Source: a bacterium (GTDB lineage: Bacteria > Lernaellota > Lernaellaia > Lernaellales > Lernaellaceae). Taken from it: a stretch of DNA of 64,000 nucleotides. The position numbers and the translations under genes were made by a program. Below the pieces are notes generated by a model, which searched no databases, was not told the DNA's origin, and saw nothing but the letters and a program-made list of their open reading frames with translations. Below, in pieces: positions 19,082 to 24,862 of this stretch (position 1 is its first letter; each line of letters opens with the position of its first letter). The stretch is taken from assembly GCA_036725605.1 (NCBI GenBank), contig DAIMDW010000007.1, positions 88,388-152,387 on the forward strand, given 5' to 3'.

Positions 19082-19963
19082 TTATTCGACCGGGTAATCC
19101 AGGGTTCTCACGGCCCATTCGTCTTCGTAGAAGCTGGGTGTGATGAAGTGCATCGCGGTGCTGCCCAAGACGCCGAAATCGATTTCGACCGGAATCTGGC
19201 AATTCGGGTCGGGCGTGCCGGGATTGTCCAGATCGTACCAGTCGTAAGAAACGACCGTCGTATTGCCGTCCCATTCGCGGGAATAGAACTGCTGATCGGC
19301 CAGGTTGTACAGATCGCAGGCGCCGTAGCGGATGATCACGTTGTCGGTCGGTCCCGGCGGCAGTTCGTCGTCGCCGTACACCTTGAAGGCGAAAACGTTG
19401 ACGTGCGGCACGTACCAGGCTTTGTTGCCGCCGCTGAGGTTCAACGTCATTTCGACGATCGTCTCGACCGCTTTGGCCCCTTCGTCGCGCTTTACGACCA
19501 GCGCGTACTGTCCTTCGCTCAGCCCTTCGATCTGATAGGTCAGGTCCTTCACGCAATTGCTGTCGCCGCCGCCGACGGTGTCCAGCTCGGTCACGGTGAT
19601 CGTGCTGCCCGACACCGAAACCTCGCCGCCCAGGGTGAAGCCGGCGTTGACGTAAGCGAACAGGTCGCTGATCGACAGCACGCCGTTCTGCCAGGTCACT
19701 TCGACGATATCGGCCGGACTGGCGGTCGGGTCGTAACTGCCGTCATCGCTGCCGGCGATGCACCCGGTCTGATCCGGGTTGGTCAGCGTAACGTCGTCAT
19801 CGTCGTCGTCATCATCATCGGTGGTGTCGTCGTCGCCGGTATCGTCATCGTCGTCATCGTCGGCGTCGTTGTCGTCGTCGTCATCGTCATCGTCGCCGCA
19901 GGCGAGGGCCAGGGAAAGCGTCAGCGCCAGCGCCAGCATGATCAACAGCCATTTGTATTTCAT
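19082..19963 (-). CDS. Lipoprotein with Cys-Gly-poly-Asp directly after the lipobox cysteine, followed by a beta-rich domain.
   Basis: MKYKWLLIMLALALTLSLALAC|GDDDDDDDDNDADDDDDDDTGDDDTTDDDDDDDDD…. Confidence 0.6.
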   Translation of the reverse strand: MKYKWLLIMLALALTLSLALACGDDDDDDDDNDADDDDDDDTGDDDTTDDDDDDDDDVTLTNPDQTGCIAGSDDGSYDPTASPADIVEVTWQNGVLSISDLFAYVNAGFTLGGEVSVSGSTITVTELDTVGGGDSNCVKDLTYQIEGLSEGQYALVVKRDEGAKAVETIVEMTLNLSGGNKAWYVPHVNVFAFKVYGDDELPPGPTDNVIIRYGACDLYNLADQQFYSREWDGNTTVVSYDWYDLDNPGTPDPNCQIPVEIDFGVLGSTAMHFITPSFYEDEWAVRTLDYPVE

Positions 19964-20078
19964 CGTGGATTTTCCTTTCCGTTGCATCCGCAAACAGCCT
20001 AAGGAGAATCGCCCGCGAAAGTCAAGCAGCGCGCACGGCTTGCTTTATCGCCGCGAAACGTCGTGCTACACTGCGCCC

Positions 20079-21569
20079 ATGCGAAACACTATGTTGCGGT
20101 TTTGGTTCGGGATTTTTTGCCTGGTCGCGCTGGCGGGCTGCGGCTCGTCCAAGGCGCCGGCACCCTCGTTCGATTGGCGCGCGGCGGTGACCACCCTCAA
20201 TTACAACGACGACGACCGCGACGAGGATCGCCGGCTGGCCGCCGTCATGCTCGGTGTGCACCGTCAAAGCGAAGCGACCGCCATGCTCATCGAGCATCTC
20301 GAACGCGATGCGGACCCGAAAGTCCGCGCCGCCTGCGCCTTCGCCCTGGGACGCATCGGCGGCGAGCAGGCCGTCGAGGCGCTGTTCAAATCGTTGCCCA
20401 ATCCGTCTCCATTGGTACGGGGAGAAATCGTGCGCGCGCTGGACGGCCGCCTCAACGCCGAACGCGCCGCGCGTTTACTGGCCTTCGCGGAGAATTCCGA
20501 CGGTGACACCCAGTTGCTGACCGCGCGCGTGCTGGCCGGAGCGGGTTTTGCCAAGGAAGCGAAAAGTCTGAAAGTCGATCCGGTCCGCATGGCCGTGGAA
20601 AACGAACCGCGCCGGTTGTACGTCGATGCAACGGCCGGCAACGACGCCGCGCCGGGCACCAGCGAGCAGCCGGTCGCGACGATCAAACAGGGGCTGGAGT
20701 TGCTCGGCCCGGGCGACACCTTGTACGTCGCCGGCAAGGCGAAAGAACCGTTGCGCGAAACGGTCGTCATCCCGGCGCGCCTGTCCGGTCTGCCGCAGCA
20801 ACCCACGCGCCTGCTGGCCTGGCCCGGCAAGCCGCGGCCGGTGATTCAACCCACGCGCGAGTATGACGCTGCCGCGTTTCGCGCCGACGAAGAAGGCGGC
20901 TATCGTTTGACCGTCGACGAAACGGTGTACGGCGTGGCGATCATTCAAGGATCGCAGGTGCTCTCGCTGACCATGCCGGAGTTGGATGACGAGTACGCCG
21001 ACGGCGTGTTCACCTATGACGAGCAAAGCAAGGAGTTGCGGCTGACCGTCAAACCCGATCGCGGCAAGTTCGCCGGCAAGGTGGAGGTCGCCTTCGCGCC
21101 CGACGGGATCGTGGTTGAGGGCGCGAACGACGTGCTGATCAGCGGTTTCGACGTGCTGTACGCCCCCGACTCGGGGTTGGACGCCGAGCACGCCTACCGC
21201 GTTTCGTTCATCGACTGTTCGGCGACGCACTGCCTGCGCCACGGCATCTTCACCTATTACGCGCCGCTGGCGACCATCGATTCGTGCCGCGCCGATTACT
21301 GCGTCTACCAGGGCATCAGCGTGCGCACCAGTCCGCAGACCGTCATCAGCCGCTGCCGCGCGACGCACAACCGTACGCACGGCATTTTGCTGCTCTACGA
21401 CACCGACGACGCGGTGGTGCTCGCTTGCGAATCGCGGTTGAACTTCCGCCAACTGTCCTTCATTCAGGGCTCCGACTTCGGCCGGGTGATCAAGTGCCGT
21501 TTCGACCAGCCGGCCGCCGAAACGATCCATTACGAAACCGGCTCCCTTCCCGGATTGGTGGTGGAATGA
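20079..21569 (+). CDS. Lipoprotein with HEAT/PBS-lyase-like repeats and a C-terminal right-handed beta-helix (pectate-lyase-like) domain.
   Basis: Signal plus lipobox (FCLVALAGC). HEAT-like repeats (DPKVRAACAFALGRIGGEQAVEALFKSLPNPSPLVRGEIVRALDG). Cys/His-rich repetitive C-terminal beta-helix-like sequence. Confidence 0.55.
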   Translation: MRNTMLRFWFGIFCLVALAGCGSSKAPAPSFDWRAAVTTLNYNDDDRDEDRRLAAVMLGVHRQSEATAMLIEHLERDADPKVRAACAFALGRIGGEQAVEALFKSLPNPSPLVRGEIVRALDGRLNAERAARLLAFAENSDGDTQLLTARVLAGAGFAKEAKSLKVDPVRMAVENEPRRLYVDATAGNDAAPGTSEQPVATIKQGLELLGPGDTLYVAGKAKEPLRETVVIPARLSGLPQQPTRLLAWPGKPRPVIQPTREYDAAAFRADEEGGYRLTVDETVYGVAIIQGSQVLSLTMPELDDEYADGVFTYDEQSKELRLTVKPDRGKFAGKVEVAFAPDGIVVEGANDVLISGFDVLYAPDSGLDAEHAYRVSFIDCSATHCLRHGIFTYYAPLATIDSCRADYCVYQGISVRTSPQTVISRCRATHNRTHGILLLYDTDDAVVLACESRLNFRQLSFIQGSDFGRVIKCRFDQPAAETIHYETGSLPGLVVE

Positions 21570-23329: not shown

Positions 23330-23341
23330 TTAAACGAAGGG

Positions 23342-24862
23342 TTAGTCGACCGTATCGTCGTCGGTGGTGTCATCGTCGGTCGTGTCGTCGTCGGTGGCGT
23401 CGTCGTCGGCCGTGTCATCGTCGGCCGTATCGTCGTCGGCGGTGTCGTCATCGTCGTCGTCATCACCGCCGAATCCCTGGTAGGTGACATTCAGCGTCGC
23501 CGACTCGCTCAACGCCCCGCACACGTCCTCGATCGCGAACTGCAACGCATACGTGCCGTCGGCCATCGTCGGCAACGCGAGTTGCGTATTGGGCAGCGCG
23601 CAGCCGCTCGCCGCGGGCAGATGCGCCGACAACGGCCGCCAGTTCTGCCCCTCGATCGTCCACAGCGCGACGCCGTAGGCGAGGTTGCAATCCGCGTCCT
23701 GCATGGACAGTTGCACCTGCGCCTCGACCCCGGGCGTGACGACCGGCGTGGCGGTCTGCTCGCCGTTGATCACCCCCTGCACCAGCAGCGTCGGCGCGGC
23801 GTTGGCGTCCGGGCAATAGGATTCGCGCACCCAATCGAAGGTCAGCATGCCGCCGTCGGCGTCGGGAACAACCTTCAACGGCGCGTTGCTTTCCAGCGAC
23901 ACCAAATGCCCGCTGGTTTCGCCGGTTTCGTTCTGCCGGATGAAGCCGATCAGCGTGCCGTCGTCGTTGAGCCGGTGATCGTAGTTGAGCGTGTCGCCGC
24001 CGCCGGCGATCAGCGTGTTGGTTTCCTCGTCCAGATCCCACACGTAAATCTGGTTGTTGGAATTGTAATAGACGCGCCGCCCGTCGGCGCTCCAGCGCGG
24101 CTGCGTGCCGTTGGCGATGTAGGTCACCGGCTCGCCGTCGGCCTCGACGATCACCAGCAGGTTGTGCCGGTAGCCGTTGGCGTACTGCTCCAAGGTAATC
24201 GAAGCGGCCACCAGCGATCCGTCGGGCGTCCAGCGCGGGAAGAAATCGCCTTCCTCGGGCAGAGCGAAGTATTCCTCGGTGTCCTTGAACGGCGGATATT
24301 CCACCCAGACCTGGTTCGTGTCGTCCGCGTCGGCGACGACCAGCCCGTCGGCGGTCAGATAGGCCACCCGCGACAAATCGGGCGAATGCGCGCCGTAGCG
24401 GGCGATGTTGCTGAACAACACGCCGCCTTCGCCGGCGACCGTCGCTTCGTACAACAGCCCGTCGGCCGGATCGTTGTAGAAAAGCTTGCGCCCGTTGGCG
24501 GCCAGCAGGGCGTAGCGCGCCTCGACGATCGTCCGTGTGGCGTTGCCGTCGAACTCGCCGATCAGCACCTGCGCGCCCTGGTTGATGAACAGATATTCGT
24601 CGGTGTAGCCGGAGGTCTGCAACTCCAGCATCAGGTCGTTGTTCAGGTAGGTGACGTCGTTTTCCTTGATGTCCAGCAGGTAGGTGCCCGCGATGCCCTG
24701 CCACTTGCCGGAAAAGATCATCTTGGCGTCGATCACCGGCGCGGGCGAATCGTCGTCGTCGTCATCGTCGCCGTTGCCGCCGCGATCACAGTCGACGAGC
24801 AGGAGAAACGTCAGCGACAAAAGCAAGAAATACAGCAGCATCATCGTGGGGCGTCGAGACAT
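23342..24862 (-). CDS. Lipoprotein with a WD40/TolB-like beta-propeller, Cys-poly-Asp at the N-terminus and a long poly-Asp(Thr/Ala) C-terminal tail.
   Basis: MSRRPTMMLLYFLLLSLTFLLLVDC|DRGGNGDDDDDDDSPAP… Propeller-like repeats (YLTADG…, VYYNSNNQIYVWDLD…). C-terminus GGDDDDDDDTADDDTADDDTADDDATDDDTTDDDTTDDDTVD*. GGAGGG RBS. Confidence 0.6.
   Translation of the reverse strand: MSRRPTMMLLYFLLLSLTFLLLVDCDRGGNGDDDDDDDSPAPVIDAKMIFSGKWQGIAGTYLLDIKENDVTYLNNDLMLELQTSGYTDEYLFINQGAQVLIGEFDGNATRTIVEARYALLAANGRKLFYNDPADGLLYEATVAGEGGVLFSNIARYGAHSPDLSRVAYLTADGLVVADADDTNQVWVEYPPFKDTEEYFALPEEGDFFPRWTPDGSLVAASITLEQYANGYRHNLLVIVEADGEPVTYIANGTQPRWSADGRRVYYNSNNQIYVWDLDEETNTLIAGGGDTLNYDHRLNDDGTLIGFIRQNETGETSGHLVSLESNAPLKVVPDADGGMLTFDWVRESYCPDANAAPTLLVQGVINGEQTATPVVTPGVEAQVQLSMQDADCNLAYGVALWTIEGQNWRPLSAHLPAASGCALPNTQLALPTMADGTYALQFAIEDVCGALSESATLNVTYQGFGGDDDDDDDTADDDTADDDTADDDATDDDTTDDDTTDDDTVD

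Follow-up and report, generated by a model that had tools for sequence, protein, structure and literature searches.

We analysed a 64,000-nucleotide stretch of contig DAIMDW010000007.1 (GenBank assembly GCA_036725605.1, forward-strand positions 88,388 to 152,387), hereafter the window, whose coordinates are used throughout. Two of its genes encode exported proteins in which long runs of aspartate (Asp) lie close to the cysteine (Cys) that closes a lipoprotein signal sequence: lipoprotein 1 (19082..19963, minus strand, 293 amino acids) and protein 2 (23342..24862, minus strand, 506 amino acids). In two further exported proteins, a glycoside hydrolase and a peptidase, a run of Asp instead stands directly before a C-terminal Gly-Cys-Gly-Cys (Dn-GCGC).

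Two exported proteins with long aspartate tracts

Lipoprotein 1 is an open reading frame (ORF) with a plausible ribosome-binding site (AAGGAAA), a signal peptide and the lipobox LALAC, in which Cys22 (codon at 19898..19900, minus strand) is followed by Gly23. The N-terminus reads MKYKWLLIMLALALTLSLALAC-G-D8-N-D-A-D7-TG-DDD-TT-D9-VTL..., with Cys22 ending the lipobox, and residues 24-57 (19793..19894, minus strand; D8-ND-A-D7-TG-DDD-TT-D9) make up the Asp-rich linker. The lipobox conforms to the PROSITE PS51257-type rule, [LVI][ASTVI][GAS]C. Using AlphaFold on the family alignment, we obtained two confident beta-sandwich domains at residues 59-290, and DSSP assigned no secondary structure to residues 17-58 of the model; the predicted local distance difference test (pLDDT) score was 50-57 over most of the linker, compared with 85-98 over most of the domain. 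No significant Pfam or NCBIfam family and no fold match in the PDB was found for this protein.

A word-index search with the globular part of lipoprotein 1 returned one close homologue only, and exhaustive HMMER searching, which was then used, returned 47 relatives. All 12 of the aligned full-length relatives (26-50% identity) carry the lipobox Cys, a Gly or Ser and then an Asp-rich linker of 30-55 residues; the linkers of more distant relatives are short and ordinary. The linker DNA is a period-3 tandem array according to Tandem Repeats Finder (TRF), and the linker is rearranged in frame among variants of 90% identity. Composition and position are thus kept while the sequence itself is not, as expected of a disordered linker under selection.

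Protein 2 consists of a signal sequence, the lipobox LLVDC, a Gly/Asp linker, a TolB-like propeller, an Ig-like domain and an acidic tail, and it too has a plausible ribosome-binding site (GGAGGG). Its N-terminus reads ...FLLLVDC25-DRGGNG-D7-SPAP..., the D7 (residues 32-38; 24749..24769, minus strand) starting six residues past Cys25 (24788..24790, minus strand). A preliminary description of this DNA had given both proteins more than seven Asp near the Cys, which holds for lipoprotein 1 with its D8; protein 2 has exactly seven. The same description also credited protein 2 with some 40 residues of Asp repeats at its end, and this we confirmed: residues 467-506 (23345..23464, minus strand) hold D7 followed by T/A-x-DDD pentapeptides (GG-D7-T(ADDDT)n...TVD-stop) and no Cys. 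By TRF, the tail is encoded by 7.3 tandem copies of a 15-bp unit; close variants have three, six or seven repeat units, and all eight protein 2 homologues likewise end in Asp-rich repeats of the DDDx type. The protein matches the PD40 and TolB-like families; AlphaFold, again on the family alignment, placed the propeller at residues 47-344 and an Ig-like beta-sandwich at residues 358-461, whereas residues 21-38 and 479-506 score below 50 in pLDDT (about 40 in the tail). In the models of both proteins, the stretch from the Cys to the first domain is predicted to have no stable structure.

Protein 2, a lipoprotein in the preliminary description, has a Cys that follows a signal sequence, but the lipobox is atypical and fails the PS51257 rule, solely at position −1 (Asp24). 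Six of the seven orthologues pass the rule; the exception has Asn at −1. At Asp24-Cys25 (24788..24793, minus strand), all five close variants keep Asp at −1, and G, A, S or N occupies this position in orthologues from other species.

Aspartate runs are confined to exported proteins

Every run of at least four Asp in the six frames of the window lies inside one of four exported proteins. We compared the counts with 2,000 residue shuffles of the window's proteins: runs of at least four numbered 11, where the shuffles averaged 0.28, and runs of at least seven numbered seven, a length that none of the 2,000 shuffles produced. An assembly artefact or a wrong frame was ruled out by the recovery of the same proteins from three independent assemblies (ENA, JGI and NCBI), by in-frame variants (members of the 90%-identity clusters differ by in-frame changes of repeat number only), by a GC content of 0.81-0.87 at third codon positions and by the ribosome-binding sites. 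Asp codons are mixed, GAC making up 0.74 of them inside runs and 0.69 outside, and the longest stretch of one codon is four, so the tracts are not simple microsatellites.

Neutral low-complexity expansion, with replication slippage in GC-rich DNA tolerated in disordered termini, would explain why TRF finds period-3 and 15-bp arrays and why repeat number varies between close variants. However, mixed codons with same-codon runs of at most four are a poor substrate for slippage, the composition is held at the same position in homologues down to 26% identity, and the tracts are found only in exported proteins and beside anchors; a terminal GCGC that is invariant in more than 100 proteins (see below) is likewise hard to reconcile with neutrality. 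We consider slippage a very unlikely explanation of the tracts.

Aspartate tracts recur across the lineage and beyond it

The window's DXS protein has its best named match in Ca. Lernaella stagnicola (69% identity), followed by Geobacter and Thermodesulfobacteriota at about 60%; judged from this single marker, the organism probably belongs to Ca. Lernaellota (FEN-1099). We surveyed related metagenomic DNA amounting to about 1 Mb and picked by a different pattern (D4-GCGC), independent of the post-lipobox motif, and called a linker Asp-rich when at least 40% of the first 30 mature residues were Asp. By this measure, 38 of 91 predicted lipoproteins (about 40%; the 91 include a few spurious frames) have an Asp-rich linker, with Gly at position +2 in 20 of the 38, Asp in five and Ser in four. 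The suggestion that Cys-adjacent poly-Asp is a recurring module therefore stands, for these lipoproteins and for the more than 100 secreted proteins that end in Dn-GCGC-stop. In loci from metagenome-assembled genomes (MAGs) of the FEN-1099 type, the linker extends as a long (DDDx)n, where x is T, A, V, I, S, G, L or N, and neighbouring genes that had not been selected share the design.

A scan for C-G-D7 in one genome per GTDB species found at least 114 stretches, against about 0.07 expected from an arithmetic estimate. Among the matches listed, at least 88 of 118 occurrences lie exactly at a strict lipobox at the end of a signal peptide, and the taxa include Chloroflexota, Actinomycetota, Lachnospiraceae, Bacteroidales and Myxococcota. 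FEN-1099 and unclassified 'bacterium' MAGs have several matches per genome, and many of the Chloroflexota proteins are Tat-type substrate-binding lipoproteins. Chloroflexota and Lachnospiraceae are taken to be monoderm, so a spacer role is the only one possible for the C-G-D7 start in those taxa.

Domains on lipoproteins with an Asp-rich linker include glycoside hydrolase families GH1, GH31 and GH67-related, esterase, BNR and Lcl. Those on lipoproteins that have no tract include ABC substrate-binding proteins, a murein endopeptidase, SppA-type peptidases and a LysM protein. This census is weakly consistent with a difference in localisation between the two groups.

Taken together, poly-Asp or (DDDx)n as this lineage's standard tether for exported proteins, mainly next to an anchoring Cys, is the best-supported interpretation, and lipoprotein 1 and protein 2 are ordinary members of the convention. 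With a probability of about 0.65, we read the tracts as disordered polyanionic tethers beside a lipidated Cys that also act as a sorting signal, with no part played by radical S-adenosylmethionine (SAM) chemistry.

C-terminal Dn-GCGC tags and a myxosortase-family protease

The two C-terminal tags in the window belong to a secreted GH18 glycoside hydrolase (30775..32010, plus strand), which ends ...DDDFF-D7-GCGC-stop (GCGC at 31996..32007) and keeps this tail in five variants, and to a secreted peptidase C25 of the gingipain family (40214..42430, minus strand), which ends (DDDDTG)n-D13-GCGC-stop (GCGC at 40217..40228). The peptidase probably starts at MRRTILL (42367), and a terminator-like hairpin follows its stop codon. 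A metagenome scan with D4-GCGC followed by T-R-R gave 123 matches, of which 121 have a true stop directly after the motif. Dn-GCGC-stop closes over 100 different secreted proteins in a few metagenomes (Ga0116164, Ga0272444, Ga0116156, Ga0209203, ERZ795059 and JAANMU01; our loci L118-L231). These proteins have type I signal peptides, and their PKD, S8, C25, M28, M14, purple acid phosphatase, BNR, Kelch and FG-GAP domains are those of enzymes and adhesins that work outside the cell. Variant termini in the same DNA are SGGCGC, GCGCQA, RGCAC, NACGC and GCCGC.

GCGC is the generic signature of MYXO-CTERM, a C-terminal sequence with a Cys predicted to be lipidated; proteins that carry it are brought to the surface by the type II system (PMC11980579). 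The tags resemble MYXO-CTERM (TIGR03901; Haft 2023, bioRxiv 10.1101/2023.06.07.544157; PMC11980579) in the GCGC itself with its invariant Cys, which both window tails have, in a secreted cargo of peptidases and adhesin-like proteins and in a myxosortase-family protease within the window. Unlike MYXO-CTERM, the window tags end at GCGC itself and have neither the transmembrane helix nor the arginine cluster nor a score of at least 20 bits; tested in isolation, Dn-GCGC tails matched nothing in NCBIfam even at E ≤ 10. A transmembrane or basic segment that read-through or frameshifting might add after the stop was found in no frame of 108 tails. An Asp-preceded full domain does exist in a FEN-1099 MAG, where a subtilase ends ...DDDDGGDDSGCGCSTTGSAPSSGPIGVSALVFATILLWRRRR, a complete MYXO-CTERM that begins DDSGCGC and scores 33.4 bits on TIGR03901.2 (cut-off 20).

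The protease is a CPBP (Rce1-like) intramembrane protein of the myxosortase family (8614..9276, plus strand; PF02517), named 'myxosortase family protease' by NCBI. It scores 126 bits on NF040914 Mrt_core (cut-off 100) and 193 bits on MrtP (cut-off 250), and so provides a candidate cognate myxosortase for the Dn-GCGC tails. Judged by sequence, the window tags fall outside the MYXO-CTERM definition and look like an end that a myxosortase has already processed.

A small lipoprotein of 123 amino acids (51023..51394, plus strand; lipobox ALLGC, C-terminal hydrophobic helix plus RRK), which had been counted as a third case, does contain DDDAQGCG, but with just three Asp it fits the pattern only weakly. 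Against MYXO-CTERM its tail reaches 15.2 bits (cut-off 20), and no Cys stands beside the helix. The gene sits between those for a FadL-like porin and a TonB-dependent receptor.

Several related loci carry the design further. A 95-residue ORF (L133:480-764, plus strand) consists of a signal peptide, a lipobox C-G, about 65 near-pure Asp residues and GCGC-stop, with no folded domain, so that the Asp chain spans two putative anchor cysteines. This ORF and the tails of L179, L184 and L221 contain uninterrupted Asp runs of about 20-30 residues. In a family of about 220-250 amino acids (L121, L156 and L194), an Asp tract directly follows the type I cleavage site (AFAQ|NDDVDDDV...) and a Dn-GCGC-stop tail closes the protein. 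In a FEN-1099 MAG (L099:926-2341, minus strand), a mucin-like poly-Thr/Ser linker of about 170 residues precedes a DDDx tract and the end ...DDGQCGCGS-stop.

Such proteins bring into view a role in binding cations or minerals (Ca2+ or Mg2+, bridging of lipopolysaccharide or exopolymer, mineral adhesion), with tethering secondary. Poly-Asp binds Ca2+ and minerals as a matter of general chemistry, as in biomineralisation proteins; Asp runs as long as 27-30 residues in related loci make the charge density here extreme, the DDDx periodicity is kept in the anchor-free tail of the protein 2 family, and the L133 ORF holds little besides poly-Asp between its signals. Yet the tracts are nearly always terminal, by an anchor or a cleavage site, as linkers would be; their length and arrangement vary freely among close variants, the x of DDDx is unconstrained, no structured Ca-binding motif is present and nothing in Pfam corresponds. 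We regard cation binding as the primary role as rather doubtful.

Possible sorting signals beside the lipobox cysteine

In E. coli, acidic residues beside the acylated Cys, such as Asp at +2, cause lipoproteins to avoid the Lol system. Both poly-Asp proteins had been linked to this rule in the preliminary description, and they resemble it in having acidic residues next to the lipidated Cys. As a +2 rule it does not carry over: lipoprotein 1 has Gly23 at +2, as do most Asp-rich linkers of the lineage, and protein 2 has an Asp there that is not conserved, its orthologues having Q, N, T, M, Y, H or S. As avoidance through acidic residues more broadly, the idea is plausible by analogy, for C-G-D-D is literally the same as a Pseudomonas motif: GDD and GGG are Lol-avoidance motifs in Pseudomonas (PMC12802150).

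Gly/Ser or Asn/Asp motifs at P2'-P4' mark lipoproteins that reach the surface by type II secretion or in a GspN-dependent manner in Acinetobacter, Burkholderia and Shewanella, and a 'hybrid glycine/aspartate' motif has been described for type II secretion lipoproteins (PMC12802150). The C-G-D-D of lipoprotein 1 would, on its sequence, belong with the Gly/Asp P2'-P4' type, and the type II system also serves MYXO-CTERM proteins (PMC11980579), which share their GCGC with the C-terminal tags described here. The correspondence covers the first three or four residues only, and the window genes that we scanned include none recognisable as belonging to a type II secretion system. The lipoprotein export signal (LES) of Bacteroidota offers a second parallel. 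It reads C-S-D-D-D-D in B. fragilis and C-X-K-(D/E)2 in Capnocytophaga, and SDDDD is sufficient for surface export in Bacteroides (PMC5080379). Lipoprotein 1 (C-G-D8) has the features of a putative LES, with a small or polar +2 residue and at least two acidic residues at +3 to +5; here, as there, several Asp come right after the acylated Cys and Asp is preferred over Glu, and Bacteroidales genomes are among the C-G-D7 matches. Unlike the LES, which takes four or five residues at critical positions, the tracts run to 30-55 residues, and the host lies outside Bacteroidota (its DXS is nearest to Ca. Lernaella stagnicola), so the resemblance is one of sequence only. A sorting role for the C-G-D-D start is plausible by these analogies.

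If the tract were only an E. coli-type inner-membrane retention signal, the rest of it would have no function. The Asp at +2 of protein 2 fits such a signal, and so does Lol avoidance by acidic residues near the acylated Cys in E. coli and by GDD in Pseudomonas (PMC12802150). Set against this are the Gly at +2 in lipoprotein 1 and in 20 of the 38 Asp-rich linkers, with Asp in only five, and the unconserved +2 Asp of protein 2; moreover, a retention signal needs far fewer than 30-55 residues, and C-G-D7 also occurs in Chloroflexota and Lachnospiraceae, which are taken to have no outer membrane and no Lol system. The cargo does not fit either: the GH1, GH31, GH67-related and esterase proteins that bear tracts are typical exo-enzymes, and it is the substrate-binding, murein endopeptidase and SppA-type proteins that fall in the group with no Asp tract. 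Retention alone is in our judgement unlikely.

Radical SAM enzymes and other neighbouring genes

Three genes near the start of the window encode radical SAM enzymes with SPASM domains: an 878-residue fusion with a family 4 glycosyltransferase (GT4; 90..2726, plus strand), an 895-residue fusion with a carbamoyltransferase N-domain (3342..6029, plus strand) and a stand-alone radical SAM/SPASM protein (6033..7136, minus strand). A separate carbamoyltransferase C-domain gene (2723..3349) lies between the two fusions. The myxosortase-family gene is 1.5 kb from the stand-alone gene, and a tetratricopeptide repeat (TPR) membrane protein is encoded between them.

The preliminary description had proposed that these enzymes join Cys sulfur to the beta-carbon of Asp, as in PapB/freyrasin-type ranthipeptides, which would make the tracts modification sites. 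The idea draws on the three radical SAM/SPASM genes within 90..7136, on the 1.5 kb between the stand-alone gene and the myxosortase-family gene, on the C-X3-D spacing that C-G-D-D-D formally holds and on the argument that a trans-acting housekeeping maturase of a proteome-wide tag needs no adjacency. The likeness to PapB/freyrasin goes no further than a Cys near Asp and the presence of SPASM genes within the 64 kb: an enzyme of the PapB type is missing, the genes are not adjacent, and neither a short precursor nor a repeated CX3D register occurs. The stand-alone protein scores 40 bits on the PapB model NF047865 (cut-off 340), and its top models all remain below cut-off (MftC, 150 bits against 265; GeoRSP, NirJ and PqqE), and the GT4 and carbamoyltransferase fusions suggest non-peptide substrates. 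The genes lie 12-19 kb from those of the lipoproteins, with SbcCD-like, TlyA-like, DXS, XseB and RsmI genes intervening. The putative substrates are Sec-exported proteins of 200-1500 residues (293 and 506 amino acids for the two here) and not short leader-bearing peptides encoded beside a maturase. Lgt needs a free thiol on the lipobox Cys, and Asp tracts exist that have no Cys at all.

We also compared the window's myxosortase, radical SAM, TPR and glycosyltransferase-C (GT-C) type proteins with about 230 related loci by tblastn, which returned no myxosortase and weak radical SAM similarity in just three loci, with no consistent radical SAM neighbour; this outcome makes co-localisation unusable for or against a trans-acting enzyme. 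Overall, the thioether proposal found no support, and we rate it as extremely improbable.

Four large GT-C-type membrane proteins are encoded within the 64 kb. Three are PMT_2 and/or TMEM260-like (21563..23329, plus strand; 45502..47862 and 53725..55677, minus strand) and the fourth has a PTPS_related domain (55674..57407, minus strand); the first lies between the genes of lipoprotein 1 and protein 2. O-glycosylation of the Thr in DDDT by a neighbouring PMT_2 GT-C protein was considered and is disfavoured, since T or S fills the x position no more often than A, V, I, G or L does.

Discussion

Our preferred reading, that the tracts are tethers with a sorting function, can be put as a sequence of steps. 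The lineage, probably Ca. Lernaellota / FEN-1099, would set an Asp tract between an anchoring Cys and a folded domain. In lipoprotein 1 and protein 2, the anchor would be the N-terminal lipobox Cys, with a predicted modification made by Lgt, Lsp and Lnt; the window itself encodes an apolipoprotein N-acyltransferase (Lnt; 61200..62939, plus strand; LNT_N plus CN_hydrolase), the third enzyme of lipoprotein maturation. The tract may then hold the domain off the anionic membrane like a charged bristle, and its first residues, C-G/S-D-D, may serve as a sorting code beside the acylated Cys that, by analogy, would disfavour Lol extraction and/or send the protein to the cell surface. Many outer-membrane lipoproteins of E. 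coli have disordered N-terminal linkers, on which their sorting depends (El Rayes et al., bioRxiv 10.1101/2021.01.05.425367). The tracts described here resemble such linkers as disordered stretches between lipid anchor and domain in which length and disorder matter over sequence; the E. coli linkers differ in not being polyanionic homopolymers.

Several observations weigh against this reading or narrow it. About 55-60% of the lineage's predicted lipoproteins have no Asp tract, and the difference in domains between those that do and those that do not is only suggestive. Lipidation of protein 2 is uncertain, given the Asp at lipobox position −1, and the N-terminal linkers of its orthologues are rich in Pro, Glu and Thr and hold no poly-Asp, which makes the poly-Asp composition of the N-terminal linker dispensable in that family. 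Asp tracts also occur with no adjacent Cys, in the tail of protein 2, after type I (AxA) cleavage sites and in interdomain linkers; anchor adjacency is a strong tendency and not a rule. A sorting motif needs three to five residues and cannot explain tracts of 30-55, and the C-G-D7 start in phyla taken as monoderm weighs on a purely sorting role. More generally, the lipidation, localisation and function proposed for these proteins rest on sequences and structural models.

A bolder extension concerns both ends of the exported proteins. As MYXO-CTERM proteins travel by the type II system, a single hypothesis could cover the two: acidic residues by a lipidated Cys would avoid Lol and mark a protein for surface export. 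Poly-Asp would then be a bidirectional code by which C-G-Dn lipoproteins and Dn-GCGC proteins alike are kept from Lol and passed to surface export, and Dn-GCGC-stop would be a cleavage-independent minimal lipidation tag, previously undescribed, that arose from MYXO-CTERM by loss of the helix. We offer this tentatively, as a possibility well short of probable. In form, Dn-GCGC-stop recalls the CXC prenylation motifs of eukaryotic Rab proteins.

The kind of feature, a linker or sorting region after the lipobox, is familiar. A near-homopolymeric Asp tract of 30-55 residues on about 40% of the predicted lipoproteins of a lineage, mirrored on more than 100 secreted proteins before a terminal GCGC that has no transmembrane helix, was not found described in the literature that we searched: no paper turned up on poly-aspartate in connection with lipoproteins, signal peptides or linkers, and the paper describing FEN-1099 mentions neither lipoproteins nor secretion systems (PMC9324843). 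The Pfam and NCBIfam libraries likewise gave no match to the post-lipobox Asp linker or to the Dn-GCGC tail. Both patterns are simple and recognisable, which should help annotation.

Runs of Asp or Glu destabilise translating ribosomes in E. coli, and Asp runs that reach about 30 residues raise the question of how the ribosome of this lineage tolerates them. The helix-free tags, for their part, are natural minimal substrates for asking which enzyme lipidates the MYXO-CTERM Cys. The residues after the acylated Cys set the destination of a lipoprotein, and the rules are known for few phyla. The tracts of this uncultured lineage are an extreme form of such a region. If the tracts do contain a true sorting code, it would extend the motifs of Bacteroides, Pseudomonas and Acinetobacter to a new lineage and would join N-terminal lipoprotein sorting to C-terminal anchoring of the MYXO-CTERM type.

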